DNA from: an uncultured Acidobacteriota bacterium
GTDB lineage: Bacteria; Acidobacteriota; JAAYUB01
Reading direction: 5' to 3'
Assembly (NCBI GenBank): GCA_964436005.1
Contig: CAYTBK010000006.1
Coordinates: forward strand, 2,212 to 66,211
DNA: 64,000 nt
A program made the position numbers and the translations under genes. Of the stretch, positions 1-56,794 are shown piece after piece. Numbering within the stretch: position 1 is the stretch's first letter; each line of letters opens with the position of its first letter. The notes below the pieces were generated by a model. The model saw only the letters and a list, made by a program, of their open reading frames with translations, did not search any database and had not been told where the DNA came from.

Positions 1-1532
1 ACGCGGATCAGGGTGGTTTTGCCCGCCCCGTTGGGCCCCAGGAGGCCGACGATGCTGCCCCGCGGGACGCACAGGTCGACGCCGTCCAGCGCGGTGATGC
101 GGCCGAACTTTTTCGTCAGGTTGCTCACCCGGATCGCCGGTTCCGGGGCCGGTCCGCCGGCCGAGGGGCCTCGCCCCCGCCCCGGCGGCTCCGCCCCGCC
201 GCCGGGGGGACGGGGTTCTTCTTCCCGATAGCAGGAGCGCAGGGTGTCCAGGGTCAGGACCGGCAGGCCGTCGTGCAGCAAACCCCATCCCGGCCGCCGG
301 CCGGTGAGGAGAAGCCCCTCGTCGCTCACGCCGGCCCGGGCGGCCAGTTCCCGTTTCCGGCGCCGGAGGAGGGCCGGCAGGGCCCCGAGAAACCGCAGAT
401 ACCCCCGCAGGTAGGCGGCGGACAGGGCGAAGTTTCCCCGGCGGAGAAGGTGCCGCAGGGCGGCGGCGTCCTCGCGCAGGTAGTTGCCCAGGGCCCGCTT
501 CAGCGTTGTCCGCTCCAGGTTCTTGCAGGCGAAGTACAGGCGGTTGCCCACCACGAAGCGGAGCTTGAAACCCTCCGCCCGGCGGCCCATGGAGGCACCG
601 CCCTTGTGGTAGACCACGGCGGCGGGGGCGGCGTGGACCGGGAACCCCCGGAACTGCGCCCGGTAGCACCAGTCCATGTCCTCGTAGTAGAAGCGGTAGA
701 ACTCGTCCAGGCCCCCGATCCGCGCGACGGTGCCCCGGTTGAGCAGGGCGGCGGCGAAGCAGGCCGAAGGGGAGTTTTTCACACCGTCGAACTGGTTCAG
801 GTCCAGAAAGCCGAAAAAGTTGTCGGCGCCCCAGTCGTGGTCCCGGACAGCGTTGCCGATGGAGTTGATAAAGCAAGGGTTATCATGGTACAGGATCTTC
901 GGTGCGATGGCGGACCACCGCTCGTACTGCCCGGCCGCCCGGACCAGCTCGAGCAGCGCGTTCCGGTCCAGGACCGTGTCGTTGTTGAGCAGCAGGACGA
1001 ACTCCCCCCGCGCCCGGGCCAACCCTGCGTTCACCGCGGCGGCGAACCCGGCGTTCCGTTTCATCTCCACCAACCGCACGCCCGCCGCCCGGCTGCGCAG
1101 GAGGGGGCGGGAGCCGTCGCGCGAATCGTTGTCCACCACCACGACTTCGCGGTCGGGGTAGCTCTGGCGTTCCAGCGAGTCGAGCAGTTCCGGCAGATGC
1201 TCTTCCCCGTTGTAGTTGACGACGAGGATGGAGACCAGCGGCGTGCGGGAAAGGGGGGCGGCCTCGGCGCCGGCCCGGTCCGGGGCCTCCGCCGGCGGTT
1301 CTGCCTCGAGGGCCCCGAGACGAACCATGGCCAGCAGAAAGACCGCCAGGAGCGGGCGGTCGAGGGCGCTCTTCTCCGCGATCTCCTCCTCCGTGTGGTG
1401 GTCGATGCTCTCGAGGAGGCGCCGGGTGAGTTCGTCGATGAGTACGCGGCCCCTCCCGGCCCGCTCGAGAACGATGTGCGGGCCGGTTTCCCGGATTTCC
1501 CACTGGCTGGACCTGGTGTACCGCTGGATCAT
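1..1532 (-). CDS. Multidomain protein, N-terminal ~510 aa in window: PqqD/RRE-like N-terminal segment + family-2 glycosyltransferase (GT-A) domain + Pro/Gly-rich linker + ABC transporter ATP-binding domain; C-terminus lies beyond window start
   Basis: Own translation of minus-strand frame from ATG 1532..1530 ([75 protein letters not shown]...[41 protein letters not shown]...GFAAAVNAG...[17 protein letters not shown]...[74 protein letters not shown]). No stop codon down to nt 1. Absent from ORF track only because the frame is open at the window edge (no other minus-strand ORF >=60 aa in this frame). In-frame upstream stop TAG at 1604..1602. GT2 motifs and Walker A are unambiguous; the PqqD-like assignment is by eye. 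Confidence 0.6.
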
Positions 1533-1639
1533 GCTGCGCCCTTGTCGCGCGGTCCGCTCACCCGCCGGGCCGGCCCGGCGGTCGCAACTTCGCCGCCTCC
1601 ACTATACCCGACTTCCCCGGCGGACGGCGCCTTCTTCAT
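1529..1639 (-). CDS. Candidate 36-aa small [39 protein letters not shown], translationally coupled between GT4 gene and the RRE-GT2-ABC fusion gene (possible precursor peptide or coupling ORF)
   Basis: ATG at 1639..1637 overlaps GT4 stop TGA (1638..1636) as ATGA. Its stop TGA 1531..1529 overlaps the ATG 1532..1530 of the downstream gene as ATGA. Ser/Thr/Gly-rich. Open frames are common by chance in high-GC DNA, hence low confidence. Confidence 0.2.
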
Positions 1640-2997
1640 CGAATGGGCCGGCGGGTAATTTTCTGCTTCAGGACTCGCCCGACCCGGCGAAGAAGGCGGC
1701 GGAGCAGATCGAGGCTGCGCATGTTTTCTTCGGAGAAGCGGATTTCTCCCGCCTGGCGGAGCATGTCCAGCAGGGAAGGGAGCAACTCCGCCGCCGGGGC
1801 GCGGGCTGGCTGGGGGCCTTTCGCCAGCACACGCCTGTGGAGGTCTTCGAAGCGTCGGACCGCCTGGGCGGCGGAGAAGCGTTCCCGGGCCTGCTGCCTG
1901 GCCGTCTCCCCCATCGCCTTGCGCAGGTCGGGGGATTCCCACAGCGCGCGGAGTCGCCCGGCCATGCCGGCGACGTCGCCGCAGGGCACCAGGTAGCCGG
2001 TCACACCGTCCTCGACGACTTCTTCCGGGCCGCCGCACCGGGTGGCCACGACGGGTTTGCCCGCCGCCATGGCCTCGATGCAGACCAGGCTCAGGTTTTC
2101 GTTGTGGGAGGGGTGCAAGAGCACGTCGAGGCTGCCGAGCGATTCGGCCGTGGACGGTTGAAAGCCTACGAAGTGGACGCGGTCGGAGACACCGAGGCGT
2201 TCCGCCTGTCGCCGGGCGGCCTCGGCCGCCCACGGTTCGGTGACGTTTCCGATCCAGGCGAACATCACGTCGGCACCGGAGGCGACGAGGCGGGCGGCCA
2301 CTTCGACGAAGCCTTCGGGGTTCTTGCGCAGCCCGAGGGACCCGACCGCTCCCACCAGCATGGTGCCCTCCCGGCAGCCCAGGGCCCGCCGCAGGGTCGG
2401 AGATCTTTCCGCGGGCGCCCCGGCGAAGTCCTCGACCGGGATCCCGCCGATTATCGTTTCCACTTTTTCGCCGCCGATGAAGCCCCTCACCCGTCTGCCC
2501 AGGTAGCCGGAAACGGCCGCCACCCCGTCGGAGAGCAGGTCCACCAGGGCGAAGACGGCCGGCACGGAGAGATAGGAGCTCAAGGTCTCGTTTTCCAGGA
2601 GGTTTTCGGTGACGTGCCAGACGTGGGGCCTCTTCGCCCGGGCGGCGGCCAGGGCCCCGTCGACGACGACGACGGTGTTGGTCTGGACCAGGTCTACCTC
2701 CTCCCGCTCGATGATGCGGGCGATGGTTTCCACGTTTTCCGGCAGGCCCCGCAGCAGCCGGCAGAGGTGCCGTTCGCTTTTCCAGCGCACCCCCGGCACC
2801 CACCATTCCATGGGCACCGACACGGTGCGCACGCCCAACGCTTCGATGCGGTCCTGCAGAACGCCTTCGCCCGGCAGCACGACCAGGGGATCCCACCGAT
2901 CGCGGTCCAGGAAGCGGAGGTGGTTCAGCAGGCACATCTCGGCGCCGCCCATGGCCGAAGAGTGGGAAACGAAAAGGACCCGGCTCTTACCCGTCAT
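1636..2997 (-). CDS. Glycosyltransferase family 1 / GT4 (GT-B fold)
   Basis: C-terminal 453 aa of track ORF 1636..4938 starting MTGKSRVLFVSHSSAMGGAEMCLLNH...; GT4 core EAMAAGKPVVATRCGGPEEVVEDGVTGYLV. The N-terminal 647 aa of the track ORF is read-through antisense junk. ATG 2997 overlaps upstream gene stop (ATGA). Confidence 0.8.
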   Translation of the reverse strand: MTGKSRVLFVSHSSAMGGAEMCLLNHLRFLDRDRWDPLVVLPGEGVLQDRIEALGVRTVSVPMEWWVPGVRWKSERHLCRLLRGLPENVETIARIIEREEVDLVQTNTVVVVDGALAAARAKRPHVWHVTENLLENETLSSYLSVPAVFALVDLLSDGVAAVSGYLGRRVRGFIGGEKVETIIGGIPVEDFAGAPAERSPTLRRALGCREGTMLVGAVGSLGLRKNPEGFVEVAARLVASGADVMFAWIGNVTEPWAAEAARRQAERLGVSDRVHFVGFQPSTAESLGSLDVLLHPSHNENLSLVCIEAMAAGKPVVATRCGGPEEVVEDGVTGYLVPCGDVAGMAGRLRALWESPDLRKAMGETARQQARERFSAAQAVRRFEDLHRRVLAKGPQPARAPAAELLPSLLDMLRQAGEIRFSEENMRSLDLLRRLLRRVGRVLKQKITRRPIR

Positions 2998-5222
2998 CTT
3001 CCCGCTCCTTCGTGCCGGAGTATCCTCGCCAGTTCGAGCGGCAGGCGCCAGAGCCTTCGCGGGTGCGCCAGGGCGAAGCGGACCGCGCTCCGGAGCCGGC
3101 AGACCCGGGCCTCTTTCCAGTCCACCAGGCGGGACCGCCACGGCCGCGCCCCGTACTGGTAGTTCTGCACCAGGAAGGCGTAGATTTCTTCGCCGAAGAG
3201 GTGGTAGAGCGGCCCGTGGCGCCTGGCGATGTCGGCCAGGGCGATCCTGTGCCCGTCGCCGGTGGCCGAGTGGTAACGGGACCGGCGCTGAATCCGGTAG
3301 TCGTACACGGTTTCGGGCAGGTTGACGCCCAACCAACCCTGCTCGACCATGGACATGAACGCGTCGTAATCCTCCCCCACCGACGGCAGGGTCTGCCCCG
3401 GCCAGGCGCGGCGGCGGATCAGGCTGGGGCCCATGGCCTGGTTCCGCAGCAGGAACATGGGCAGGTCCACGTCGGTAATGACCCAGGTGAAGGATTTCCC
3501 GCCGAAGGCTTCGACCCAGCCTCCGACGAAGCCAACGTTGGCATACCGTTTCAGCACGGCCGCCGCGTGTTCGAAATAGGACGGCCGGACCCGGTCGTCG
3601 GCGTCCACGAAGCAGAGGAACTCCGCGTCCGACGACCGCCCCCACCGGTTGCGGATGGCCACCGGGCCCTGGTTGCGCGGCTCCCGGACCCAGTGAACCT
3701 CCCAGCCTTTGTCGGAAACGGTCTCCTTCTGCAGGGCCGCGAATTCCTCCCGCGAACGCGGGTCTGTGGATGCGTCGTCGACCACCGTGAGGCGGATCGG
3801 CCGGTAGGTCGAGTTCCGGATGCTGTCCAGGGCCTCCCGGAGGAACCGGCCGTGATTGAAGCAGGGCATGACGACGTGGATCAGGCCGGCCACGGTCTCT
3901 CCGCCCCGGCTTTCGGTCGGCGGCGCCGGCACGGCGGCGAAACGGCGCCGGTCGGCGAAGGGGGAGGCGGGAAAGGTCCCGGGGCCTTCGGAGTGGCTGC
4001 GCTCCACGGTTTCCCGGCAGATTCGCTCGTAGACCGGCAGGGCGTTTTTTACGGATACCAGGCGGCACACCCGCCGGTTGGCGCTGTCGCCCCATTCGGC
4101 CAACTCTGCCGGCGAGGCGGCGAGGACCCGTTTGAGGGCCTGGGCGAGCCCCCGTTCGTCCTCGTACAGGAAACCGGAAGACCCGGGCTCGACCAGTTCG
4201 GTGTGCCCGCCCCGGTCGGAAGCGATGACGGGCCGGCCGTACGACATGGCCTCGATGCAGGTGTGTGACAGCGATTCCATCAGGGTGGGCAGGACCACGG
4301 CCCGGCTCTGGGCCAGGGCGTTCCGGACGGTCTCGAAATCCTCGGCGTGCGGTAGGATGCGGAGCAGTCCCCGGCGGATGTACCTTCCGTACTCTGTCCG
4401 GATGTGGGTGGCCATGTCCGTTCCCCGCGGCGGATACCACTGGCTCGCGCCCTGCAGCTTGAGCACGAAGGAGAGCCCTTCGTCCCAAAGCCCGGCGCAG
4501 GTCTGCAGCAGGGTCAGGATCCCCTTCAGGTAGCTGAGTTGGCCGAAGTACAGCAGTTCGTCGTTGTCGCAGGGGGGGAGACGGTTTTCCGGCACGGCGT
4601 GGGCCGAGCAGGTGTAGTAGACCGGCGGCCGGGGGAGGTGGAACCGCTCGCTGATCCGGTCCGCCATGAACTGGGAGACGGCGAACCGGTTGTCCGAGCC
4701 GACCAGCTGGTACGCCTGGCGCTGCCGGAGCAGCATGCGGGGCCAGGAGAAGGCCAGGTCTCGGTCCTGCTCGTACATGGCGAACTGGTTGGAGTGGCAC
4801 GAGGTGAGGATGGGCGCCGCGGCTTCGGGGTACCCGAGCCGCCGGTGCTGCACGAAGAAATAGCCCAGCGCCTTGAAATCGTGCGCGTCGATGATGTCCG
4901 GCACGAATCCCCCGGCCGCGAGGTGGGCGTACTCGCACCAGTACTGGTAGAGCTCGGCCAGCGGGGCGTCGGCATTCAGGAAAACCTGGTGGGCCCTTTC
5001 GCCGTAGGGGTGGCGCGGGCCGAAGCGGAGGTCGCCCAGGGCGAACTCATGGCAGACCACGCTGGCCCGGACGCTCGTCCGGCGGTGCCCCGTCAGGCAC
5101 AGGACGTGGACTTCGTGACCCTTCCCGGCCAGGGCCGAGGCCGTGTGGGAAATCGCCGTGCCCAGCCCGTACCCCTTGGGCGAGAGGCCGGGGTAAGCGG
5201 TGGTCAGGAACAGGATCTTCAT
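2994..5222 (-). CDS. Two-domain glycosyltransferase: N-terminal GT4 (MKILFLTTAYPGLSPKGYGLGTA...) fused to C-terminal GT2 (HVVMPCFNHGRFLREALDSIRNSTYRPIRLTVVDDASTD)
   Basis: Track ORF 2994..5900; real start MKILF at 5222 (residue 227), preceded by GGAGG RBS at 5224-5228 (minus sense). ATGA overlap with the next gene upstream. Confidence 0.8.
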   Translation of the reverse strand: MKILFLTTAYPGLSPKGYGLGTAISHTASALAGKGHEVHVLCLTGHRRTSVRASVVCHEFALGDLRFGPRHPYGERAHQVFLNADAPLAELYQYWCEYAHLAAGGFVPDIIDAHDFKALGYFFVQHRRLGYPEAAAPILTSCHSNQFAMYEQDRDLAFSWPRMLLRQRQAYQLVGSDNRFAVSQFMADRISERFHLPRPPVYYTCSAHAVPENRLPPCDNDELLYFGQLSYLKGILTLLQTCAGLWDEGLSFVLKLQGASQWYPPRGTDMATHIRTEYGRYIRRGLLRILPHAEDFETVRNALAQSRAVVLPTLMESLSHTCIEAMSYGRPVIASDRGGHTELVEPGSSGFLYEDERGLAQALKRVLAASPAELAEWGDSANRRVCRLVSVKNALPVYERICRETVERSHSEGPGTFPASPFADRRRFAAVPAPPTESRGGETVAGLIHVVMPCFNHGRFLREALDSIRNSTYRPIRLTVVDDASTDPRSREEFAALQKETVSDKGWEVHWVREPRNQGPVAIRNRWGRSSDAEFLCFVDADDRVRPSYFEHAAAVLKRYANVGFVGGWVEAFGGKSFTWVITDVDLPMFLLRNQAMGPSLIRRRAWPGQTLPSVGEDYDAFMSMVEQGWLGVNLPETVYDYRIQRRSRYHSATGDGHRIALADIARRHGPLYHLFGEEIYAFLVQNYQYGARPWRSRLVDWKEARVCRLRSAVRFALAHPRRLWRLPLELARILRHEGAGR

Positions 5223-6208
5223 GCCTCCCCTCCCATGGCGGCGGCCCCGGGGGAGCCGGGTTCCGGCCTGCTTCCGTCCCTGGCCAGGAAGGCCCGGGCC
5301 AGCGGCCTGGCCACCCGCACCAGGAGGGGCACGGCCACGGCCCGCGGGCCGAACAGGTGGTTGAGGAGGAAGGAAGCCTTCAGTTTGTCCATGGTTTCGA
5401 GCCAATCCTTTGCCAGGGCTTTGTCCAGGTCGCTGGCGGGGAGGCCGCGCAGCACCTCGGCCACCGGGAACCCGCAGAGGTCGATCCGGTAGCGGGCGGC
5501 CAGCGCCGCCAGACCGCGGTGTCCTCCCGGCCCGCCAGCCGGGAGGGGGAGCGGGACGGTTTCTCCCGCGACCCGGTGGCGGTCGACAAGGCAAGAAAAC
5601 AGGGCGGGCGAGCGGTCGGCGAGCACGGCGCGCACGCCACCCGCCGGCGGGAGCGGGGGGGACTTGCGTACGGCCTGCCAGGGGGCCCCCGGTTCGGGGC
5701 GGCGGGCGAACACTCTTCGGCGGCATCCTATCACCACGGGGGCGATGGAGGACCGGGCCCGGAGCACGAGTCGCTCCAGGGCGCGGTGGTACAGCGCGTC
5801 GCGGTGGGTGTGGCAGAAGAGGTAGCGGCCTTCGGCCTGCCGGAGGCCCTCCGCCGCCAGGGGGACCGTTTCCTCTTCGCCGTGTCCAGCTTCGCCCCAC
5901 ACGACGCGGTGCCGCCCCACCTCCAGGACGGCCGTGCCTTCGTGGACGGGCCGGACGGGGTGGGGTGAGGACGGGGGGGCCGGAAAGGGCTGCCGTCGGA
6001 TGATCCCGGCGATTTCTTCGGCCAGCCCCGCCGTCCCGTTCCGGACCACGACCACCGCCTGCAGGGAGGCCAGGGAACAGGTGGCCAGGCCGAAGAGGGC
6101 CCTGTTTAGGAGTTCCGCGTCGTCCTGAACGGAGAATACGACGACGGCGCTGACCCCCTCAGCGGTCCCTTCCTGGGTTTTCGCCTGGCCGGGGCGGGGG
6201 TTCACCAT
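5219..6208 (-). CDS. Glycosyltransferase-like protein (GT-A/GT2-like; VVVFSVQDD...VVVVRNGTAGLAEE)
   Basis: C-terminal 329 aa of track ORF 5219..7099 starting MVNPRPGQAKTQEG at 6208; weak GT2-like motifs, family assignment tentative. Confidence 0.5.
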   Translation of the reverse strand: MVNPRPGQAKTQEGTAEGVSAVVVFSVQDDAELLNRALFGLATCSLASLQAVVVVRNGTAGLAEEIAGIIRRQPFPAPPSSPHPVRPVHEGTAVLEVGRHRVVWGEAGHGEEETVPLAAEGLRQAEGRYLFCHTHRDALYHRALERLVLRARSSIAPVVIGCRRRVFARRPEPGAPWQAVRKSPPLPPAGGVRAVLADRSPALFSCLVDRHRVAGETVPLPLPAGGPGGHRGLAALAARYRIDLCGFPVAEVLRGLPASDLDKALAKDWLETMDKLKASFLLNHLFGPRAVAVPLLVRVARPLARAFLARDGSRPEPGSPGAAAMGGEA

Positions 6209-7038
6209 CGGCAGCCCGCAAAGGCGAAATTTCGGTCGAACCGGGCCACCCGGGCCGCCGCGGCCGGCGGGATCCTTCCCTCGTCGGCGGGAAGCGCGGG
6301 AAGTTCTTGCGGTGATCGGAAGAATTTCCGGGAGAGGAGAAGCTTTTCGCAGTGGAGCTGGAATTCTTCCATGTGCCACTTCCAGGCCAGGCGCCGCCCG
6401 GACTCCAGTTGGCGCCGCTCCACCAGCGGGTCGCCTCCGCGGTCCCGGACGTCGTGCGCGAAGAGCGCCGCCGGGCACACTTTGGTGGAGAACCCGCCCA
6501 GGCGCGCCCGCCACGAGAAATCCACGTCCTCCATGTACAGGAAAAAACCGGGGTCGAAAGGCCCGATGGCCTCGTAAACGGCCCGCGGGACGAGCAGGCA
6601 GCACGCCGAGCACCAGGGGGTGTCGAACTGGAGGGGGTCGTACTCCTTGGGGTGTTCTTCCGGGAACTGCAGGGCTTCGATCAGGGCGGTCGGGAATCGC
6701 CGGTTGAATTCGAGGAGCGCCGCCAGGGCCCGGTGGTGGAAGGCGCCGTCGGGGTTGGCGCAAAGGAAGGCCTGGGCGTGGAGGTCTTCGAAAGCGTGCC
6801 GCATGAGCCGATTGGTGGACACGGCGAACCCGACGTTCCCCTGCGGTTCCAGCACGGTTGCCGCGGGGGTGCAAAGGGCGAGGCCCGGGTCGCCGTGATT
6901 GTCGACGCAGGCGAGGGCGATTTCGCATTCGGCGGGCAACTCGGCGGCGGCGAGGCGGCAGGAGCGGGCCAACCGCTCCAGCTGGTCCGGTGGGTTGGCG
7001 TACGTCGTAACTCCCACAACGATTGTTGTTCCTCGCAT
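6202..7038 (-). CDS. Glycosyltransferase family 2 (rhamnosyltransferase-like motifs)
   Basis: Track ORF 6202..7386, real start MRGTTIVVGVTTYANP at 7038; motifs GNVGFAVSTNR and FFLYMEDVDFSWRARLGGF. Confidence 0.7.
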   Translation of the reverse strand: MRGTTIVVGVTTYANPPDQLERLARSCRLAAAELPAECEIALACVDNHGDPGLALCTPAATVLEPQGNVGFAVSTNRLMRHAFEDLHAQAFLCANPDGAFHHRALAALLEFNRRFPTALIEALQFPEEHPKEYDPLQFDTPWCSACCLLVPRAVYEAIGPFDPGFFLYMEDVDFSWRARLGGFSTKVCPAALFAHDVRDRGGDPLVERRQLESGRRLAWKWHMEEFQLHCEKLLLSRKFFRSPQELPALPADEGRIPPAAAARVARFDRNFAFAGCRW

Positions 7039-7099
7039 TCCTGGTCCTTCCCGGTGGCCTGGCTTGGATAGCCTGTTGCCGTCTGTGGCCCTGCCGCAA

Positions 7100-8098
7100 T
7101 CAACCCAACGCGTCGGTCGGGTCGGCCGGCCTCGCCTCCGCCGCCGGCCGGGAGAGGGGAGCCAGATTCCCCCGGTGGCAGGGCAGGCCTTTTCTTGCCT
7201 CGTGGAAAAAAGACCGGGACCAGATGGCGGCGCCGGCCAGGTAGAGCGGCCAGCGCAGGCACAGGACCCCCAGGGAACGGCGGTCGTGCCGGAACAGCCA
7301 GCGGGCGGCCTTCGCGAGGCGGACAAAGGGCATGGTGAACGCCAGCGGCGGGAAGCGGATGGCCGTGTGGACGGGCAATCCGGCACGGTTGCGCGCCCGG
7401 GCCGACCACTCGCCCAGGTCGCGCTGGTAGGCCAGCATTTCGCCCAGCCGGGCGTGCTTGCAGTGCAGCACCTCGATGGCCGGGTCGAACAGGATGCGCT
7501 CTCCCGCTTTGTGCAGCCCCCAGTGGAACAGGACGTCCTCGGATAACCGCATGTCGTCGTCGTATCCCCCGTGCCGCTCGAAGACCTCGCGGCGGTACAT
7601 GATGATGGCCGTGGGGACCGACGCCTCCGTCCGCCGGGGGCAGGCGGGCATGAACTCGCGGAACTCGAGGTGGTAGGCGACCCAGTCGGCCGCGCTCATG
7701 GGCGATTCCTGGCGCAGCGCCCCGCCCACCGCCGCGTACGCTCCCTCGGCGTGCCGGGCCAGCATGCGCTCGATCATGTCCGGGAAGGCGACACAGTCGG
7801 AATCCAGCATCAGGCAGAACGGGGAGCGGCTGGCGCGGACGCCGGCGTTGCGGGCCGCCCCGGCGAACGTGCGCCGGGGAAAGCGGATCAGGCGGACGGA
7901 GGGGAACTCCCGTTCCACGATCTGCGGCGTTTCGTCTTCCGAGCTGTCGACCACCAGGATCTCGAAGGGGACGGCCGTGTCCTGGCGCAACAGGGACTGG
8001 AGACAGGCCCGGATGGTCCGGGCCGAGTTGTAGCAGGGTACGATAACCGTGACCAGCGGGTCTGTTTCCGGTGCGGAACGTACTTCTCGCGACGCCAT
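7100..8098 (-). CDS. Glycosyltransferase family 2
   Basis: Track ORF 7100..8185; start MASREVRSAPETDPLVTVIVPCYNSARTIRACLQSLLRQ at 8098; classic GT2 N-terminal motif and DSD. Confidence 0.8.
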   Translation of the reverse strand: MASREVRSAPETDPLVTVIVPCYNSARTIRACLQSLLRQDTAVPFEILVVDSSEDETPQIVEREFPSVRLIRFPRRTFAGAARNAGVRASRSPFCLMLDSDCVAFPDMIERMLARHAEGAYAAVGGALRQESPMSAADWVAYHLEFREFMPACPRRTEASVPTAIIMYRREVFERHGGYDDDMRLSEDVLFHWGLHKAGERILFDPAIEVLHCKHARLGEMLAYQRDLGEWSARARNRAGLPVHTAIRFPPLAFTMPFVRLAKAARWLFRHDRRSLGVLCLRWPLYLAGAAIWSRSFFHEARKGLPCHRGNLAPLSRPAAEARPADPTDALG

Positions 8099-8245
8099 GG
8101 CGCTGCCGACCCCCTTCTGCTCTGTCCGGCACTGTAACGTGCTGCTGAAAGCGGGCATTGTAGAAGAGGCCCGGCCGGATTGCAAGGGCCCATTGGCCGG
8201 GGCGCGCAGGTGCTGAAGCGGGGGCGGCGCGCCCCAGAACGTTTC

Positions 8246-9037
8246 TCAACCGTTGGATTCGGCCACGATGTACTCCTTCCGGCGGAAGATCCATGCACCC
8301 AGCAGCAGGGCCACGGCGCCCGTCAGCAGGGGCACCAGGATGGAAACGACCGTTCCGGAGGCCTCGAGGTGGAAGGTCATGGGCCCGCGGGCCTGGTCGA
8401 TCTGGGGCAGGAGGGACTTGAGGTAGTGGATGATCGTCAGCTTCTGGGTGACGCCCGGCATGAACTGGATGATGCTTTCCCAGCCGAAGACGAAGATGAG
8501 GCCGGTGAGGATGGGCCGCTTCAGGAAAGCTCCCAGCAGGGCGAAGAGGGCTGTGTAGGCGAAGACGGCCAGCAGGCCGACGAAGAAGGTGCAGTAGAAG
8601 CGCCCCCAGCGGTCGGCGGAGGCGAGGCCGGCCGGGTCCGCGGCCAGGAAGGCGGCGAACAGGCTGAAGGCCGCGATGAGCGCGGCCACCCCGCTGTAGG
8701 CCAGGGCCTTGCCCAGGAAGATGCCGCAGCGTGGGGCCGGGCGGGTGATGAGGTAGACCAGCGTCTTGTCCTCGATCTCGTCGGAGACGACGGTGGAGCC
8801 GTAGAAGAGCGCCAGCACGGGGATCAGCAGCTGGAAGAAGAACGACGGCAGCGGACCGGTGAAGAAGGTCTCGGCGGGGATGTCGGTGGCGTGGGACAGG
8901 GTGGCCACCAGCCGGATGACGCCGAGTATCGCCGCCGGGATCACCCCGATGACGAAGAAGGCCCGGGTGCGCTTCGAGCGCAGGGACAGCCGGCCGAAAG
9001 CGCCGGCGGTGATGCGGATGCCGTGAGCCAGTTTCAT
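8246..9037 (-). CDS. ABC-2 type transporter permease
   Basis: 263 aa, six predicted TM helices, follows the ATPase with 2-nt gap. Confidence 0.7.
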   Translation of the reverse strand: MKLAHGIRITAGAFGRLSLRSKRTRAFFVIGVIPAAILGVIRLVATLSHATDIPAETFFTGPLPSFFFQLLIPVLALFYGSTVVSDEIEDKTLVYLITRPAPRCGIFLGKALAYSGVAALIAAFSLFAAFLAADPAGLASADRWGRFYCTFFVGLLAVFAYTALFALLGAFLKRPILTGLIFVFGWESIIQFMPGVTQKLTIIHYLKSLLPQIDQARGPMTFHLEASGTVVSILVPLLTGAVALLLGAWIFRRKEYIVAESNG

Positions 9038-9039
9038 GG

Positions 9040-9963
9040 TTACCTCCCCACCAGGTAGTCGAAGATGGCCTGGAGGTTGTCGTCGGGGGAGGTGAGTTCC
9101 TCCACCGCGAGGTCCTGTTCGGCGATGGCCTGCGTGAGTGCTTCGAAGCAGGGGTCCTGCCGGTCCGTGGACAGGGTGAGCCCGTTCTCCCCGTCCAGGG
9201 AGACGCTCCGGACGGCCGGGTGCCCGATCATCCGCTCGGCCAGCAGGCGCGCTCGGTCACAGCGGACGAATATCTGGTGCGGGTGGTCGTCGAGGAGGTT
9301 GCGGATAGTGTGGATGTCCCCCTGGGCGAAAACTTTGCCCTGGTGGATGAGGACGATCTCCTCGGTCAACCCCTCCACTTCCGGGAGGATGTGGGAGGAC
9401 ACCACCACTGTCTTCCCTTCGGCTTCCAGTTCCTTGAGCATCTTCGATATGCGGATGCGCCAGAGCGGGTCGATGCCGCGGAGCGGTTCGTCCAGCAGCA
9501 GCACCTCGGGGTCGTGCACGAGGCAGGCGGCCAGACGCAGGCGCTGCCGCATGCCGAAGCTGTAGGCCTTGACCTGCCGGTGGGCGTTGTCCTGCAGCCC
9601 GACCTTCTCGAGCGCCTCGCCGGCCCGTGTTTTGGCCTGGCCGCCTTCGAAGCCATGCAGGTGGGCCATGAAGAGGGTGAATTCCCCCCCGGTCATGTCG
9701 GGGTAGAAGCTGTCCGCCTCCGGGCAGACGCCGATGCGGGAGAAGACGTCCGGGTTGGCGAAGACGTCCTCGCCGAGCACCCGGATTTTGCCGATGCTGG
9801 GCTTGAGCTGGCCGGAAACCAGTTTCAGGAAGGTGGACTTGCCGGCGCCGTTGGGCCCCAGGAGGCCTTTGATGCCAGGGCGGATCTCCAGGTTGATCTC
9901 GCTGACGCCCAGGATGTGCCCGTACCACTTGGAAAGGTTTTCGGCGGTGATGACAGCGTTCAT
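9040..9963 (-). CDS. ABC transporter ATP-binding protein
   Basis: MNAVITAENLSKWYG...[12 protein letters not shown]...LLLDEP; start at 9963 (C-terminal 307 aa of track ORF 9040..10785); ATGA overlap with upstream permease. Confidence 0.85.
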   Translation of the reverse strand: MNAVITAENLSKWYGHILGVSEINLEIRPGIKGLLGPNGAGKSTFLKLVSGQLKPSIGKIRVLGEDVFANPDVFSRIGVCPEADSFYPDMTGGEFTLFMAHLHGFEGGQAKTRAGEALEKVGLQDNAHRQVKAYSFGMRQRLRLAACLVHDPEVLLLDEPLRGIDPLWRIRISKMLKELEAEGKTVVVSSHILPEVEGLTEEIVLIHQGKVFAQGDIHTIRNLLDDHPHQIFVRCDRARLLAERMIGHPAVRSVSLDGENGLTLSTDRQDPCFEALTQAIAEQDLAVEELTSPDDNLQAIFDYLVGR

Positions 9964-10814
9964 GCCGTGGCCTCCGCGCGCCGGATGCGCAGGTAGAGAA
10001 ACAGGATCGCCAGCAGCGCCGCCGCGGCGAGGATGACGACGGAGTACGCGGGATCCACCGCGAACTCCCTTTCCTGACCGAAGAAAAAAGCCCCGGTGTG
10101 GTTGATGTTGCGGTTGACGGAGAGCAGGTGCCAGCCCTCCATGTGGGTGATCTCGGTGAGGATGGCCGCCACGGCGTCCGAGAAGAAGAACACGGCCACC
10201 AATATGATGCGGACGAAGTTGAGCCGTTCGCTCAAGGTCGAGAGGAAGAGGGTCATGGCGGCCAGGAAGAGACCGACCAGCAACGGGAAGGCCACCATGG
10301 CCAGCCAGAGGTCTGGTTTCAGGATCAGGCTGCCGGAGAAGACCATCTTCAGGATGAAGAGGACAATTCCCGGGACGAGGGTGAAGAGCAGCAGGTAGAA
10401 GAGCACGGTGGACAGCTTGCCGGCGAGGTAGCCGGTACGGGAGAGGGGCCGCGAGAAGTATAGCGGCAGGGCCCGCAGGCGGAGGTCCCCCGAGATCAGC
10501 CCCGCCCCGCTGAAGATGCACAGCACCACCAGGATGAAAATCAGGAAGTTGTTGGTGTAGAACATGTGGAAGATGGAGGCGTCCGACTGGAGGCTGCGCA
10601 CCAGGCGGGAGAACATCTTCAGTTCCGGCTTGGCCACCGCGTAGATGACGGCCAGGAAGAACAGGAAGGGCGTGGCGCCAAGGAAGAAGACGAGCCCCGC
10701 GTACTTCTGCCTGGCCACCCGCCGGATGCCGTTGCGCAGGATCGGGAGCCAGCGCATCCCCGGGCGGGTGACTTCGCCTTCCCACCCCATGTAACCTTTC
10801 TGCCTAATTCCCAT
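9960..10814 (-). CDS. ABC transporter permease (ABC-2-like)
   Basis: 284 aa polytopic membrane protein; overlaps neighbours on both sides. Confidence 0.7.
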   Translation of the reverse strand: MGIRQKGYMGWEGEVTRPGMRWLPILRNGIRRVARQKYAGLVFFLGATPFLFFLAVIYAVAKPELKMFSRLVRSLQSDASIFHMFYTNNFLIFILVVLCIFSGAGLISGDLRLRALPLYFSRPLSRTGYLAGKLSTVLFYLLLFTLVPGIVLFILKMVFSGSLILKPDLWLAMVAFPLLVGLFLAAMTLFLSTLSERLNFVRIILVAVFFFSDAVAAILTEITHMEGWHLLSVNRNINHTGAFFFGQEREFAVDPAYSVVILAAAALLAILFLYLRIRRAEATA

Positions 10815-11727
10815 GATTTTCCTCCACGGCCTGGATGAAGGCCTCCTCCAGGGTGATGCGGCTGCGCTGCAGGCGACGGATCTGCACGCCGCACCGGCGG
10901 GCCGCCCGGAACAGGGTCCGGGTGGTCTCCCCCGGGGGGAGTTCGACGCGGTAGTTTTCCCGTTCCTTCTCCTCCAGGCGGCAGCGGGCCTCCTCCAGTT
11001 CAGCCCGGAACGGCCCCGCCTCCCCCTTGAAAGCCAGGTCGAACACCTCGCCCATGGCGGGGTGCAGGTCGCCCACGGGCTTTTCCGCCACCACCCGGCC
11101 GTTGTCCATTATCACAACATCTTTGCATGTCGACTCTAGGTCCGGCAGCAGGTGGGTGGAGAGGATGATGTTCTTCCCCTCGGTGGCGGCGATGTCGCGG
11201 ATCAGTTCCAGCATGGCCTGGCGCCCGGCCGGGTCCATACCGGAGGTGGGTTCGTCGAGGAGCAGCATGCCGGGATCGTGGACGATGGCCTGGGCCAGCT
11301 TCAGGCGTTGCCGCATGCCGGTGGAGTAGGTCTCCACCAGCCGGTAGCGGGCCTCCTCCAGCCCCACGTAGTAGAGGACGTCGTGGGCCCGCTTGATGGC
11401 CTCCCGGCGCGGCATGCCGCTCAGTTCGCCGAGGTAGGCGGTGAATTCCACCGCGTCCATGCCCGGCAGCAGGGAGTCGCTCTCCGGCATGTAGCCGACG
11501 TTGCGGCGGAATTCCCGGAGGTCGCCCCCCAGGCCCTGGCCGAACACCGAGCCGGTGCCGGACGAGGGCCGCAGGAAGCCCAGCAGGATCTTCATGAGGG
11601 TCGTCTTGCCGGCGCCGTTGGGGCCCAGCAGCCCGTGGATGCCCCCGCCGATGCGCAGGCGGACGCCGTCCAGGGCGGTCACGTCGCCGTAGCGGAAGCG
11701 GATGTCGTCGAGGATGATCATTTCCAT
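10804..11727 (-). CDS. ABC transporter ATP-binding protein
   Basis: MEMIILDDIRFRYGD...[15 protein letters not shown]...LLLDEPTSGMD; start at 11727 (or MIILDD at 11721). Confidence 0.85.
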   Translation of the reverse strand: MEMIILDDIRFRYGDVTALDGVRLRIGGGIHGLLGPNGAGKTTLMKILLGFLRPSSGTGSVFGQGLGGDLREFRRNVGYMPESDSLLPGMDAVEFTAYLGELSGMPRREAIKRAHDVLYYVGLEEARYRLVETYSTGMRQRLKLAQAIVHDPGMLLLDEPTSGMDPAGRQAMLELIRDIAATEGKNIILSTHLLPDLESTCKDVVIMDNGRVVAEKPVGDLHPAMGEVFDLAFKGEAGPFRAELEEARCRLEEKERENYRVELPPGETTRTLFRAARRCGVQIRRLQRSRITLEEAFIQAVEENHGN

Positions 11728-14022: not shown

Positions 14023-16170
14023 ATGAAGTGGTGGACGAAGAATGTTTTCCGGCCGGCGAGGCTGCTCCTGCCGTTTTTCCTGTTCCTTTCCGGCGCCCCA
14101 GCGGCCGCCACCCTCCCCACGGCGGCTGTTGGCCCGGCCGGGGCGACCGCCGCACCCCCGCCCTGCCCGGGGGGGCAGCCCAAGGATGGCCCGCCGATCT
14201 ACTACGGGCCCTCCTACGAGTACGAGTTCACCCAGGACACCCTGGCCATGTCCGACGGCGTCCGCCTGGCCGTCAGCTACTGGAAGCCCGTGCCCCGCTG
14301 CGCCTGCGAGAAGTTCTCCGTCGTGCTGGAGATGCTCCCCTACCGCAAGGACGACAGCTCCTACAGGTCCGAGTACTCCCAGAACGCCTACCTCGCCCGT
14401 CGGGGCCTCGCAGCGGCCCAGGTCGACGTCCGCGGCACGGGGTCCTCCGAGGGCCGGCTGGTGGAGCGGGAGTACTCGAACGCGGAACTGCAGGACATCC
14501 AGGAAGTCATCGAGCTGCTGGCCCACCAGCCCTGGTGCAATGGCCGGGTGGGCATGATCGGCATGTCCTGGAGCGCCTTCAACGGCATCATGACCGCCAT
14601 GCGCCGGCCCCCGCACCTGGGCGCCCTCTACGCGATGCACGGCTCCGAGGACATCTACGGCAACGACATCCACTACATCGACGGCGCCATGCACCTGGAC
14701 ATGTACTCCATCGAGATGGAGACGGAAAACCCCGCTCCCCGGGCCCCGGACTACCGGCTGGACGAGGCCTATTTCCGCGACCGCTTCGACGCCGAGCCCT
14801 GGATCTTCACCTACATCCGCCACCAGCGGGACAGCGGGTGGTGGGAGGACGGGCGCTCGCTGGACACCGACTACGCGGCCATCGACATCCCCGTCTTCGT
14901 CGTGGGCGGGCTGCTGGACGGCTACCGAGACTTCGTCCCCCACATGCTGGAGAACATGGGCGTGCCCATGCGGGGCGAGATCGGCACCTGGAATCACGAC
15001 TGGCCCGTGGGCGGTTCGCCCGGGCCCAACTACGAGAGCCGCCAGACGGCCGTGCGCTGGTTTCACCACTGGCTGAGCGGCCATCGCAACGGCGTCATGG
15101 ACGAGCCCCGCTTCACCGTGTTCGTCCGGGGCAGCGTGCCCGCCTCCACCGAGATCGCCACCACCCCCGGCGAGTTCCGGGCGGGGGACTGGCCCTTCCC
15201 GGGCAGCCATGTCGTCCGGTACTTCCCGCAGGGGGACCGCTCTCTCCAGCCGGCCCCCGGCCCTTCCGCGCGTCACGTCCTCGCCTACCAACCCGGGACG
15301 GGCACAGAGGTGGGGAACTGGTGGGGGGAGGTGACGGGCGACATGCAGGGCGCCGATGCGGCCGCGCTGGCGTACGACTCGCCGGAAATGGAGGCGAGCC
15401 AGGTGCTGGTGGGCATTCCGCGCGTCCGGCTGACGGTCTCCAGCGACGCGACCCTGGCCCACTGGATGGTGCGGCTGGAGGACGTCCACCCCGACGGAAG
15501 CGTCTCCCTGGTCACCGGCGGGCTGATCAACGGCGCGCAGCGCCGCTCCCGCCGCGAACCGGAAGCGCTGGTCCCGGGCCAGGAGGTGGAACTCCTCATC
15601 CCCCTCCACTTCACCACCTGGACCTTCGAGAAGGGGCACCGCATCCGGCTGGCCGTCACCAACGCCCAGTTCCCCATGATCTGGCCCACGCCCTACGCCA
15701 TGACCACCACCCTGGTCCTGGGCGGCGGGGCCTCGGAACTGGAGCTCCCCTTCGTCGACGCCGCGGCCCGCCCGCGCATGCCCGTCCTCCTGATCCCCGA
15801 GCCGGAGGAGGAGGCCCCGGACGCCCGCTACATCGATTCCGGCAGTTCCACCCGGACGCTGGTGCGGGACAACTTCACCACCGTGACCAGTGGGGAGAAT
15901 CACGAGTACGAGGTGCACGGCCGGCGGTACCGCACCTCGGAGCAGCTGGTCTACCGCACCTGCGCCGACAATCCCGCCGACTCCTCCTTCCGCGGGGAAG
16001 GGGAGTGGAAGATGACGGCGGGCGGCCGGGTGGTCCAGGTGAAGGCGGAGGTGGACGTCCGCTCAGACGCAACGGTCTTCCGTGTGAGGGTGAAACGCCG
16101 GGTTTACGAGAACGGGGCCCTGGTTCGCGAAAAGGAGTGGCGGGAGGACATCCCCCGGGATTTCCAGTAA
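14023..16170 (+). CDS. CocE/NonD family hydrolase (S15 X-Pro dipeptidyl-peptidase-like), secreted
   Basis: Signal peptide; LPYRKDD...YLARRGLAAAQVDVRGTGSSEG...GMIGMSWSAF serine nucleophile elbow; GGGAGG RBS upstream. Confidence 0.8.
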   Translation: MKWWTKNVFRPARLLLPFFLFLSGAPAAATLPTAAVGPAGATAAPPPCPGGQPKDGPPIYYGPSYEYEFTQDTLAMSDGVRLAVSYWKPVPRCACEKFSVVLEMLPYRKDDSSYRSEYSQNAYLARRGLAAAQVDVRGTGSSEGRLVEREYSNAELQDIQEVIELLAHQPWCNGRVGMIGMSWSAFNGIMTAMRRPPHLGALYAMHGSEDIYGNDIHYIDGAMHLDMYSIEMETENPAPRAPDYRLDEAYFRDRFDAEPWIFTYIRHQRDSGWWEDGRSLDTDYAAIDIPVFVVGGLLDGYRDFVPHMLENMGVPMRGEIGTWNHDWPVGGSPGPNYESRQTAVRWFHHWLSGHRNGVMDEPRFTVFVRGSVPASTEIATTPGEFRAGDWPFPGSHVVRYFPQGDRSLQPAPGPSARHVLAYQPGTGTEVGNWWGEVTGDMQGADAAALAYDSPEMEASQVLVGIPRVRLTVSSDATLAHWMVRLEDVHPDGSVSLVTGGLINGAQRRSRREPEALVPGQEVELLIPLHFTTWTFEKGHRIRLAVTNAQFPMIWPTPYAMTTTLVLGGGASELELPFVDAAARPRMPVLLIPEPEEEAPDARYIDSGSSTRTLVRDNFTTVTSGENHEYEVHGRRYRTSEQLVYRTCADNPADSSFRGEGEWKMTAGGRVVQVKAEVDVRSDATVFRVRVKRRVYENGALVREKEWREDIPRDFQ

Positions 16171-16356
16171 AAATGCGAAAGCTGCCACCAGGACACAAAT
16201 GAGACGAAAGCCTTTCCGAAATTCGGGCTGTGTCATCGGGGCCGGTTTTTGACACTTTTTTCGTCTCCGGATGGGGAAGTCGGGCCATTTGCATTACCCT
16301 TGCGCTGGATTGTCGAAGCCGTGGTATACTGCGTCCTTATTAAATGCGGGGCGGGA

Positions 16357-30159: not shown

Positions 30160-31065
30160 GTGAACCCCGTCATCCGCGTTTTCGCAGCGGCCGTCCTGTT
30201 TCTGGTCGCTGTGGCGGCCGCGGGGGCCCAGGAGTTGGAACCGCGCGCCTACCTGACCCTCCCCACGGGGATGAACATCTTCACCTGCGGCTACACCTGG
30301 TCCCGCGGCGGCGTGCTGTCGGACCCCAACCTGCCCCTGCAGGACGTCCAGGCGGACGTGCACTCCCTGGTCCTCGGGTACATGCGCTCCTTCTCCCTCG
30401 CCGGCCGCTCGGCGAGCGTAAGCCTCGTCGTCCCCTGCGTCTTCGGGTCCGCCGAGGGCCTGGTCTCGGGCGAGTTCGCCAAAACCCGGCGCGACGGCCT
30501 GGCGGACCCGCGGGTCCGTTTCGCCGTGAACCTCCTGGGGGGGCCGGCGCTGCCGCCGAAGGAGTTTCGGAACTACCGGCAGAAAACCAACCTGGGGGTC
30601 AGCCTGACGGTCTCGGCGCCGTTGGGGCAGTACAACCCGGCCCTGCTCATCAACCTCGGGGCCAACCGCTGGGCCTTCAAGCCGGAAGTGGGCGTTTCCC
30701 ACGCCCGGGGCAAGTGGCTGCTGGAAGGGTACGTCGGGGTCTGGCTGTTCACCGCCAACCACGACTTCTTCGGGGGAAAAGTGCGGGAACAGCGCCCGGT
30801 CACCAACATCCAGGGCCACATCGGATACGCGTTCCGGAAGGGGTGGATGGCGATGCTCAACGCCAATTACTACATCGGCGGCCAGATCGTCGTCGATGGC
30901 GTCCGTCAGACGGACCTGCAGAGCAACTCGCGCATCGGGGGCACGCTGTTCATCCCGCTGGCCCCGGCGCACGCGCTGAAGATCAGCGTGGCCAGCGGCG
31001 CCTACACCGCGGTGGGGTCGGATTTCACGACCCTGACCGTGACGTACCAGTACCGGTGGTTCTGA
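30160..31065 (+). CDS. Outer-membrane beta-barrel protein (MetA-pathway/transporter family-like); start uncertain (GTG 30160 gives canonical signal peptide; track start GTG 30025)
   Basis: Ends ...TVTYQYRWF; VIRVFAAAVLFLVAVAAAGAQE signal peptide. Confidence 0.6.
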   Translation: MNPVIRVFAAAVLFLVAVAAAGAQELEPRAYLTLPTGMNIFTCGYTWSRGGVLSDPNLPLQDVQADVHSLVLGYMRSFSLAGRSASVSLVVPCVFGSAEGLVSGEFAKTRRDGLADPRVRFAVNLLGGPALPPKEFRNYRQKTNLGVSLTVSAPLGQYNPALLINLGANRWAFKPEVGVSHARGKWLLEGYVGVWLFTANHDFFGGKVREQRPVTNIQGHIGYAFRKGWMAMLNANYYIGGQIVVDGVRQTDLQSNSRIGGTLFIPLAPAHALKISVASGAYTAVGSDFTTLTVTYQYRWF

Positions 31066-31117
31066 GACGGAGCGGAAACCGCGAACCGCAGGTGAAGCAC
31101 GAGAAGCGGAGGACAAG

Positions 31118-33856: not shown

Positions 33857-33889
33857 ACATTACAAGATATAGAATTAAAAGGAGATCGG

Positions 33890-34831
33890 ATGATGAGTGA
33901 AAACAAGATCCGCAGATTCGGCGCAATCGGAACCCTTCTGGTTCTCCTGGGGGTGTTGGCCGGTACGGCCGTCCAGGCCGGGACCGTCAAGGTCGAGGGC
34001 CTGATCAAGCAACGCAGCGACAAGACCCTGACGATCCAGACGCCCGAGAATACGGAGGTGGTCGTATTGCTGACGAAGAAGACGCTGGTGGCCCAGAACC
34101 TGGGCGCCCTGAAGGTGCGCAAGAAGGCCATGCCGGTGTCCTGCCTCGTCACTGGATTGCCGGTCCAGGTGGAAGGGGTCTACGACGGCAAACAGCAGCT
34201 GGTGGCGAAATCGGTCCGGTTCAACGGAGACGACCTGGAGAGGGCCCAATCCATCCAGGCCGGCCTGCACGAAACCCAGGAACAAGCCCGCAAGAACCAG
34301 GAAGAGCTGGAGAAACAGAACGCGGAACTGAAGGCGCAGAACGAGGAATTGCAACGGCAGCAGGAGGAGTTGGCCGAACAGCAGCGCAGGATCGAGGAGA
34401 ACAAGGCCGCCATCGCCGCTACCGTCGCGCGCTTCGGCCAGTTGGCCGAATTCTACATCTGGGATGAAGTGACGGTCTACTTCGGCAACAACAAGACCAA
34501 CGTCGATCCTTCGTACGTTCCCCAACTGCTGGCCCTGGCGCAGAAGGCCAAGAACGTCAAGGGCTACCGGATCGCGGTGAAGGGGTTCGCCTCGCCGGTC
34601 GGCAACGCCGCCCGAAACCAGAAACTGAGCGAGCAGCGGGCCGAAAACGTCACGGCCCTCCTTCTCCAGCAGGGGGGAATCCCGGCGGTCTGCCTGTTGG
34701 CGCCCGCTGCCATGGGCGAATGGCCGGAACGTGCGCCGGCCGCCAACGACAGGACTCCCGAAGGGCAGGCCAAGGCCCGCCGGGTGGTGGTCAGGGTTCT
34801 CCAGAACAAGGGCATCGCCGGGATCGAGTGA
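33890..34831 (+). CDS. OmpA-family protein with coiled-coil segment
   Basis: C-terminal OmpA-like domain (YRIAVKGFASPVGNAARNQKLSEQRAENV); signal peptide; AAGGAG RBS. Confidence 0.8.
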   Translation: MMSENKIRRFGAIGTLLVLLGVLAGTAVQAGTVKVEGLIKQRSDKTLTIQTPENTEVVVLLTKKTLVAQNLGALKVRKKAMPVSCLVTGLPVQVEGVYDGKQQLVAKSVRFNGDDLERAQSIQAGLHETQEQARKNQEELEKQNAELKAQNEELQRQQEELAEQQRRIEENKAAIAATVARFGQLAEFYIWDEVTVYFGNNKTNVDPSYVPQLLALAQKAKNVKGYRIAVKGFASPVGNAARNQKLSEQRAENVTALLLQQGGIPAVCLLAPAAMGEWPERAPAANDRTPEGQAKARRVVVRVLQNKGIAGIE

Positions 34832-55966: not shown

Positions 55967-55978
55967 GCGGAACGCTCC

Positions 55979-56737: not shown

Positions 56738-56794
56738 CCGTTCCTGCCTTTGCCCGGTGATAGTGGCAGGGCCATGGTAACACCTCGCCGCACC

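Follow-up and report, generated by a model that had tools for sequence, protein, structure and literature searches.

In the Wzm/Wzt loci of Klebsiella and of Escherichia coli of the O8/O9 type, soluble glycosyltransferases (GTs) of families GT2 and GT4, multi-module proteins among them, are encoded alongside an ATP-binding cassette (ABC) exporter and in the absence of Wzx and Wzy, while the enzyme that starts the chain is encoded at another site, as are in many cases the genes for sugar nucleotides. It is common for priming on polyprenyl phosphate to be encoded at another site of the genome, and transporters of the DrrA/NodI class can export a lipo-oligosaccharide, as exemplified by NodIJ. The locus analyzed here occupies positions 1-11727 of a 64,000-nucleotide (64-kb) stretch of DNA from an uncultured Acidobacteriota bacterium (assembly GCA_964436005.1, contig CAYTBK010000006.1, positions 2,212 to 66,211), the whole of which is called the window, and comprises on the minus strand ten genes, G1 to G10, and one small open reading frame (ORF). 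It resembles the Wzm/Wzt loci in its soluble, partly multi-module GT2 and GT4 enzymes, in the absence of Wzx and Wzy and in having ABC transporter genes alongside, and no initiating enzyme or sugar-nucleotide gene occurs in the 64 kb of the window. It differs from them in that its ATPases are DrrA/NosF/ABCA-like, one of them being fused to a GT, that its GT4 enzyme, G9, differs from the usual partner GT4, and that Wzm (PF01061), Wzt, Wzt_C and a terminator methyltransferase or kinase are lacking at the locus. The reading that we favor, with moderate confidence, is that the locus consists of two adjacent, co-directional and separable units, that is, a glycan cluster in which an exporter ATPase is, unusually, fused to a GT (Unit B, G5 to G10) beside an unrelated transporter (Unit A, G1 to G4).

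With a GC content of ~66% in the window, raw ORF lists are unreliable, and the genes were resolved by third-position GC frame plots and start mapping (Table 1). A first-pass annotation, made from the letters of the DNA, had described eleven ORFs on a single strand in the order ATPase, permease, ATPase, permease, followed by GT genes, a small ORF and a three-domain gene; both the number, as ten genes plus the small ORF, and the order agree with the gene map and the Pfam domains. Three ABC ATPase domains (G1, G3 and the G10 C-terminus, all matching ABC_tran) and two ABC-2 permeases (ABC2_membrane_2 in G4 and, below the cutoff, in G2, each with about six hydrophobic segments) are present as described, and the region is indeed dense in GTs. 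The count of six GT domains holds for G5 to G10 if G7, which lacks a Pfam match, is left out, and rises to seven GT-like domains if G7 is counted from the annotation of its homolog. The tight coupling of the genes applies to seven junctions, which overlap by 4-11 nt (11 nt at G1/G2, 7 nt at G6/G7 and an ATGA at G2/G3, G7/G8, G8/G9, G9/small ORF and small ORF/G10); the gaps of +2 nt at G3/G4, +61 nt at G5/G6 and +147 nt at G4/G5, the last being the largest of the series, had been omitted. The reported lack of Wzx, Wzy, Wza, phosphoglycosyltransferase and sugar-nucleotide (NDP-sugar) genes extends to the entire 64-kb window, the locus has no Rfam match, and its exact gene order was found nowhere else.

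Unit A (8246-11727) is predicted to be a heteromeric ABC-2 transporter composed of two different DrrA-like ATPases and two different permeases with six transmembrane (TM) segments. G1 and G3 match PF00005 at 3.6e-28 and 4.7e-28, respectively, and retain intact motifs (in G1, Walker A, the signature YSTGMRQR, Walker B and the H-loop), and G1 has in addition a weak Pfam match to DrrA1-3_C (26.2 bits against a cutoff of 27.4). G4 matches PF12679 at 4.3e-13 and also PF12730, and G2 reaches 23.6 bits for PF12679, under the cutoff of 27.2, with a hydropathy profile fitting a multi-pass membrane protein. Classification with NCBIfam and comparison with the PDB place all three ATPase domains, including that of G10, among the DrrA/NosF/ABCA-like proteins and not with Wzt/KpsT. 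Their top NCBIfam models are drrA, GldA, NodI and RbbA, all scoring under the curated cutoffs (for TIGR01188 drrA, 206 bits for G1, 200 for G3 and 196 for the C-terminus of G10, the cutoff being 312; drrA and GldA are the best models for G3), and their nearest relatives of solved structure are ABCA transporters, NosF and Rv1218c, the same three that head the list for G1 with no Wzt or TarH; neither Wzt, TarH nor KpsT is among the top 60 such relatives. The identity to Wzt of related loci is 26-31%, in the nucleotide-binding domain (NBD) only. The earlier view that the locus is unlike canonical Wzm/Wzt or KpsMT loci is thus sustained by its three DrrA/GldA/NodI/NosF/ABCA-like ATPases. In comparison with the DrrAB, NodIJ and NosFY systems, the ATPases (G1, G3, G10 C-terminus) match the drrA/GldA/NodI models best and G2 and G4 are likewise six-TM ABC-2 permeases, but every score of the ATPases stays below its curated cutoff and the arrangement of two plus two genes is a distinct Acidobacteriota module.

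The four genes recur together in three independent genomic contexts, in the same order, with near-equal lengths and the same tight spacing, and in none of the three is a GT gene a neighbor. One-to-one orthologs of G1 to G4 are found in metagenome-assembled genomes (MAGs) named 'Acidobacteria bacterium' (L092/L093; 75/67/79/63% identity) and in Aminicenantales (L094/L095; 54/37/50/40%), the third context being L176/L177, and the 48 homologs of G4 come mostly from MAGs of Acidobacteria and Aminicenantes. The flanks after the module differ from context to context, with POR genes in one (L092), an opposite-strand DUF3352 gene and a peptidase in another, and genes for H+-PPase, PepP, Rex, CorC and SmpB in another. 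Judged by sequence and gene order, G1 to G4 form an autonomous, conserved and uncharacterized Acidobacteriota transporter module of the type ATPase-permease-ATPase-permease, which is worth study in its own right; it probably serves as a housekeeping module lineage-wide, its position beside GT genes not being conserved and probably incidental. Conversely, the contig that is syntenic with the GT genes (L089) carries no ABC genes. The junction between the two parts is itself marked: the 147-nt spacer contains a sigma-70-like sequence, TTGCAA-17-TACAAT, at 8185..8157 (three such sites occur in the region against 0.7 expected), and the GC content, ~0.66 in G1 to G4, rises here to the 0.69-0.70 of the GT block, with about 0.655-0.66 elsewhere in the window. 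The spacer is probably the boundary between two units, and the GC pattern would fit a GT block that is mobile or was acquired separately; the GC contents of relatives of the GT block are very different (L089, 0.556; L090, 0.497). Because the module recurs without GTs, L089 is without ABC genes and the boundary is marked, we regard G1 to G4 as a separate unit.

The foremost alternative is that all eleven ORFs serve one pathway, as first described, with a glycoconjugate made by G5 to G10 being exported by G1 to G4 together with the ATPase of G10. This alternative would account for the placement of all genes on one strand, for their seven overlapping junctions and for the lack of a terminator-like site between G4 and G5, and the same contiguity from G4 onward is seen in an independent assembly (L001); moreover, three ATPase domains face two permeases in view, and the G10 ATPase could in principle use G2/G4. 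It has to contend, however, with the complete 2+2 set standing without GT neighbors in three other contexts, with a closest GT-block relative that lacks the ABC module, with the coincidence of spacer, promoter-like site and GC step at G4/G5, and with the finding that G2/G4-type permeases occur in 0 of 36 other loci of the G10 family described below. We therefore consider a single pathway possible but unlikely, and the claim of one eleven-gene pathway is not upheld, the small ORF probably being no gene. For genome mining, the case is a caution that tightly packed genes on the same strand can represent two unrelated modules, which were separated here by neighborhood comparison.

Two further patterns were noted around the G1-G4-type module. 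Proline-specific peptidases recur near it: in the window, a PepX/S15 peptidase at 14023-16170 (+); in L094/L095, an S9/tricorn-like peptidase upstream and an M24 peptidase downstream (L094 3130-5184 and 10189-11490); and in L176/L177, an AMP_N+M24 (PepP-like) gene (L176 6982-8367). Fusions of S15-PepX with an ABC ATPase (~1040 aa; Pseudonocardia and relatives) are found among homologs of the G10 ATPase. The module may thus handle peptides rather than glycans. In addition, the window encodes at 31043-34831 (+) an MGH1/GH63-like glycoside hydrolase of 937 aa and, after it, a protein of the OmpA family, and in L094/L095 a GH116/MGH1-like hydrolase with OmpH lies ~4.5 kb from the orthologous ABC module (L094 13319-16549), a pattern that may be residual regional synteny.

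Table 1. Genes, domains and spacers of the locus at the beginning of the window
Feature	Position	Strand	Assignment	Basis
G1	10804..11727	-	ABC ATPase, DrrA/GldA/NodI-like class, 307 aa; opens the four-gene ABC-2 module	Pfam/NCBIfam
G2	9960..10814	-	ABC-2 permease, 284 aa, ~6 TM segments	PF12679 (below cutoff) and hydropathy
G3	9040..9963	-	Second ABC ATPase, 307 aa	PF00005
G4	8246..9037	-	Second ABC-2 permease, 263 aa	PF12679 and PF12730
G4/G5 spacer	8099..8245	-	147 nt, probable unit boundary	
G5	7100..8098	-	GT2 glycosyltransferase, 332 aa, soluble	PF00535
G6	6202..7038	-	Divergent GT2-like protein, 278 aa	Weak PF13641
G7	5219..6208	-	GT-A-like protein of uncertain activity, 329 aa	One homolog with weak PF00535 annotation
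G8	2994..5222	-	Two-module GT4+GT2 glycosyltransferase, 742 aa	Pfam
G9	1636..2997	-	GT4 glycosyltransferase, 453 aa, with ~60-aa C-terminal tail	PF00534
Small ORF	1529..1639	-	36 codons, ATGA-coupled at both ends	
G10 (part in window)	1..1532	-	Three-domain gene, cut by the window edge	
G10 residues 1-80	1293..1532	-	RRE-like (PqqD-fold) winged-helix domain	AF2 model and Foldseek
G10 residues 98-440	213..1241	-	GT2 catalytic domain, then C-terminal helical region	PF00535
G10 residues 441-510	1..212	-	~26-aa Pro/Gly-rich linker, then start of DrrA-like ABC ATPase domain	

Unit B (1-8098 and beyond the window edge) is best pictured as a cytoplasmic glycan-assembly cluster. Apart from single marginal hydrophobic stretches, G5 to G10 have no TM-like segments, and the glycan would therefore be assembled in the cytoplasm and require a transporter for export. 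G5 matches PF00535 at 7.8e-31 (best NCBIfam models MftF and EpsD, both far under their cutoffs), G8 combines Glyco_transf_4 and Glycos_transf_1 over residues 19-373 with PF00535 over residues 450-585, and G9 matches PF00534 at 2.2e-33. G7 has no Pfam or NCBIfam match; its sole homolog among 5.8 billion clustered proteins is P0129, 41% identical and with a weak PF00535 annotation, and both proteins lack the canonical DxD at the expected position, where they have HTHRDA and HTGHDA, respectively. The contig of P0129 (L089) is syntenic with G5 to G9 (75/66/41/60-66/65% identity, the last over the 178 aa available there), with the G8 ortholog called as two pieces and a weak Glyco_tranf_2_3 annotation for the product of the G6 ortholog; in it, three GT genes (GT4, GT2 and GT2) lie on the upstream side of G5, and a methyltransferase gene separates G5 from G6. 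In another related locus (L084), a G6-like gene follows the G10 homolog. In scans of JGI metagenomes, homologs of G5 were found at 50-63% identity without synteny and relatives of G8 were not found, and all of the locus proteins that were checked belong to clusters of one to three sequences.

What kind of glycan pathway Unit B represents is best seen from the family of G10, in which the same N-terminal domain, resembling an RRE (the recognition element of peptides that are made by ribosomes and modified after translation, RiPPs), precedes a GT2 domain. A profile of the G10 N-domain retrieves this domain on GT2 enzymes in a further 36 loci, which belong to Chloroflexota, Actinomycetota, Acidobacteriota, Cyanobacteria and, in one case, an archaeon. 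A partner GT4 gene, usually adjacent, is present in 30 of the 36, full-length Wzt including the C-terminal region in 22 and Wzm in 19; annotated loci of the family carry Wzm, Wzt with Wzt_C, methyltransferases, GT4, RmlC and a PF00953 initiator. The GT2 family of G10 is a regular component of Wzm/Wzt loci in the same four bacterial phyla. Since this family normally resides in Wzm/Wzt polysaccharide loci, the GT part of the present locus is most simply regarded as a variant of a known pathway type, and the original suggestion of a pathway outside the canonical ones is right for the class of the ATPases but does not hold for the family of the GT. From this family context and the solubility of the GTs, it is most likely that the GT2/GT4 enzymes build the glycan on a polyprenyl-phosphate carrier with a priming enzyme encoded elsewhere in the genome, in the manner of pathways for O-antigen or cell-wall polysaccharides that depend on an ABC transporter. 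Adaptor and polymerizing activities may be provided by G8, with its two modules, and by the single-module GTs, as in ABC-transporter-dependent O-polysaccharide systems, whose polymerase components are described as variably spread over complex-forming proteins of one or several modules (PMC11231755). A late glycosylation step would fall to G10, its fused ATPase presumably pairing with a permease encoded just past the window so as to couple glycosylation to export, and its RRE-like domain most plausibly, as our own speculative guess, docking a peptide segment of a partner protein.

Several observations weigh against this account. With no terminator-like site after G4 and the same direction for all eleven ORFs, Units A and B may be co-transcribed and cooperate functionally; the promoter-like match is weak (9/12 consensus positions), and promoters of this phylum may differ. 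The permease partner of G10 is not in view and would lie off the window. Canonical Wzm, Wzt and Wzt_C were not found at the locus by Pfam, and tblastn with Wzm from related loci (L003, L084 and L087) gave no match in the window region; in place of the Wzm-type family PF01061, G2 and G4 match PF12679/PF12730, and a Wzm-type permease may lie past the window edge. A chain-terminating methyltransferase or kinase domain was likewise not found by Pfam in G5 to G10; methyltransferases are present in the syntenic L089 and in the related L003, L084 and L087, the last of which also has a PF00953 gene. We infer the lipid-linked acceptor indirectly, because 64 kb hold neither a priming enzyme nor sugar-nucleotide genes, and the RRE fold being a peptide-binding fold, a peptide or protein acceptor is possible. 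Finally, G9 is just 28% identical to the usual partner GT4 of RRE-GT2 genes.

Two features of the locus are genuinely unusual: the singleton fusion of an RRE-like domain, a GT2 and an ATPase in G10, and, at the level of the family, an RRE-fold domain embedded in polysaccharide machinery. As to the first, full-length G10 (P0001) has 750 aa and is encoded on an NCBI contig of 69,390 bp, its ATPase domain running ~720 nt past the window edge, with a GT2 domain matching PF00535 at 7.9e-25 and an ATPase in which Walker A, the LSGGW signature, Walker B and the H-loop are intact. To G1-type ATPases the ATPase part shows 36-42% identity, compared with 26-29% to Wzt of related loci. P0001 is the only match in the homolog searches that combines GT2 with ABC_tran, a singleton among the 5.8 billion clustered proteins; its nearest homologs, P0002 and P0003 (57-58% identity), stop after the GT2 domain, and the gene following unfused homologs is either another GT2 gene or one on the opposite strand. 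A fold search with full-length G10 returned generic GT-A enzymes (PcManGT, ppGalNAc-Ts, GlfT2 and TarS/TarP), which are uninformative on the substrate, and a search of the literature on GT-NBD fusions yielded nothing specific. If functional, the G10 fusion would be a natural example of the last glycosylation step being directly coupled to export.

The second alternative takes the opposite view of G10, namely that the fusion and the small ORF are recent neutral accidents with no special coupling role: a stop loss or small deletion would have joined the GT2 gene to a neighboring ABC ATPase gene, an insertion would have split G9 from G10, and the cluster would otherwise be an ordinary polysaccharide cluster. 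The rarity of the fusion and the unfused state of the closest homologs are in keeping with this, as is the ~26-aa Pro/Gly linker, whose atypical, non-genic composition by codon position (0.94/0.84/0.81) is as expected if it is former intergenic DNA now being translated. The reading frame across the junction is open and identical in the window and two Logan assemblies, whose short contigs both break off within G10, and this tells against an accident, although all three assemblies apparently stem from one sample series. Both the GT2 and the ATPase domains, moreover, keep their catalytic motifs, and the GC content at third codon positions (GC3) is high throughout the ATPase part, consistent with continued selection. 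A neutral origin without function appears rather doubtful, and we rank it after the single pathway.

As to the second unusual feature, the label of an RRE given earlier to the N-terminus of G10 fails at the level of sequence and holds at the level of the fold. No match to PqqD (PF05402) is obtained from the sequence of the domain, which gives only weak generic winged helix-turn-helix hits (FeoC, LrpA and MarR_2), but an AlphaFold2 (AF2) model of residues 1-80 (pLDDT 93.6, pTM 0.80) has a bbbb-aaa-b topology (b, strand; a, helix) and, searched with Foldseek against the PDB, matches TbiB1, TruD, lasso B1, TigE (TM-score 0.80), PbtF, ThcOx, McbB, MccB, TbtB and CteB, as well as the RRE-like domains of the non-RiPP enzymes GdmN and NO66. 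The probability of these matches is ~1.0, with E no better than 1.8e-3 and query-normalized TM-scores of 0.56-0.80. According to the model, the G10 N-domain has the RRE fold, sharing the bbb-aaa winged-helix topology of known RREs (TbiB1, TruD/LynD, MccB, McbB and CteB); unlike these, it has no sequence-level PqqD match and no conserved precursor peptide, and its context is polysaccharide genes. A library-wide search with the N-domain profile (1.84 billion representative proteins) gave 27 matches, and 14 of the 24 that were scanned are GT2 enzymes and none is of the PqqD type. The updated RRE-Finder lists RRE-PF00535 fusions as newly retrieved and uncharacterized, flagging them as candidate RiPP enzymes (PMC12710340). 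The genomic context argues against G10 being a peptide glycosyltransferase. RRE-GT2 proteins, found mainly in Wzm/Wzt loci, are then either false leads for RiPP discovery or signs of an unrecognized peptide-docking step in polysaccharide assembly.

Some RRE-like-GT2 proteins are ~900-990 aa long with large extra C-terminal regions (L015, L024, L025, L027, L029, L030 and L051), so that the family has several architectures besides the ATPase fusion. A related N-terminal domain is hinted at in MftF itself, to judge from the alignment: positions 11-286 of the MftF model TIGR03965 align to residues 28-312 of P0011, thereby spanning the P0011 N-domain.

It is conceivable, though improbable, that the RRE-fold domain of G10 and of its relatives in at least 36 loci is a working peptide-binding module, either with the glycan being built on a peptide or protein acceptor or with a leader-like docking that assembles a machine of GTs and exporter. 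In the extreme case, G10 alone would bind a peptide, possibly the small-ORF product, glycosylate it and power its export, and such peptide binding, glycosylation and export by one protein would, if true, constitute a new kind of glycopeptide assembly-and-export line.

Closely related to this, and the least probable of the alternatives that we graded, is a glycosylated RiPP, in which the 36-aa ORF encodes the precursor, the RRE binds it, the GT2 glycosylates it, the other GTs extend the glycan and the ABC-2 transporter exports the product or confers immunity. Nearly all of the top structural matches of the high-confidence RRE fold are RiPP leader-binding domains, and the flagging of RRE-PF00535 fusions noted above points the same way. 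The small ORF lies directly upstream of the RRE enzyme with ATGA coupling on both sides, and the DrrA-type ATPases resemble, with scores below the cutoff, the lantibiotic-protection ATPase model TIGR03740. The small ORF, however, lacks codon-position periodicity, its GC content by codon position being flat (0.73/0.70/0.73) in contrast to a GC2 of ~0.47 and a GC3 of ~0.88 in the neighboring genes, and its product would be Gly/Ala-rich and of low complexity. None of the related loci examined has it: in L090, L003, L084 and L085, no ORF intervenes between the G10 homolog and the gene upstream, which abuts or overlaps it. An unfiltered search for small ORFs returned only alternate-frame shadows of GT genes, and when only intergenic ORFs were kept, the 36 RRE-GT2 genes proved to have no conserved family of small ORFs nearby, the remaining ORFs spanning at most three closely related loci. 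The placement of RRE-GT2 genes in polysaccharide loci with Wzm/Wzt(+Wzt_C), methyltransferase and RmlC, the presence of RRE-like folds in the non-RiPP enzymes GdmN and NO66 and the retrieval of no PqqD-type proteins by the N-domain profile all speak against a RiPP, as does the absence from the locus of a leader peptidase or a C39-peptidase ABC exporter; likewise, for the SunS model TIGR04195, G5 scores 28 bits against a cutoff of 350 and Pfam finds no peptidase domain at the locus. Rather than a peptide gene, the small ORF is probably non-coding spacer sequence or an ORF that relays ribosomes. The RNA fold of the G9-G10 spacer is unremarkable (z = 0.62), and the double ATGA coupling, unlikely by chance according to our rough estimate, may reflect selection for the passage of ribosomes from G9 on to G10 following an insertion.

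Other known systems can be set aside quickly: for a mycofactocin-type system, MftF (TIGR03965) is the best NCBIfam match of G5 with 124.6 bits against a cutoff of 280 and a weak match for G6, G8 and the GT2 of G10, all below the cutoff, and the window has no radical-SAM or mftA-E genes; a synthase-type pathway lacks its membrane-integral GT, and neither gene of a Wzx/Wzy pathway is present in the window.

Elsewhere in the window, far from the locus, a 508-aa GT2::S-adenosylmethionine methyltransferase fusion is encoded at 47117-48643 (+), and similar fusions occur in the Wzm/Wzt locus L084. A further ABC ATPase, extended by ~170 aa at its N-terminus and lacking an obvious permease, is located at 55979-57199 (-), where it is flanked by a HAMP histidine kinase (53810-55978) and by a protein of 727 aa with a weak match to DUF4139 (57200-59383). 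A tungsten-type aldehyde:ferredoxin oxidoreductase with an N-terminal extension of ~190 aa (40653-43307, -) and a sigma-54 activator (16171-18726) suggest, together with the POR genes of the relative locus L092, an anaerobic lifestyle. An ArsR-type regulator is found at 59878-60216, and at 61309-63646 (+) there are three consecutive or overlapping ORFs with DGC domains (PF08859), one of which is fused to a glycine-cleavage H-protein domain.

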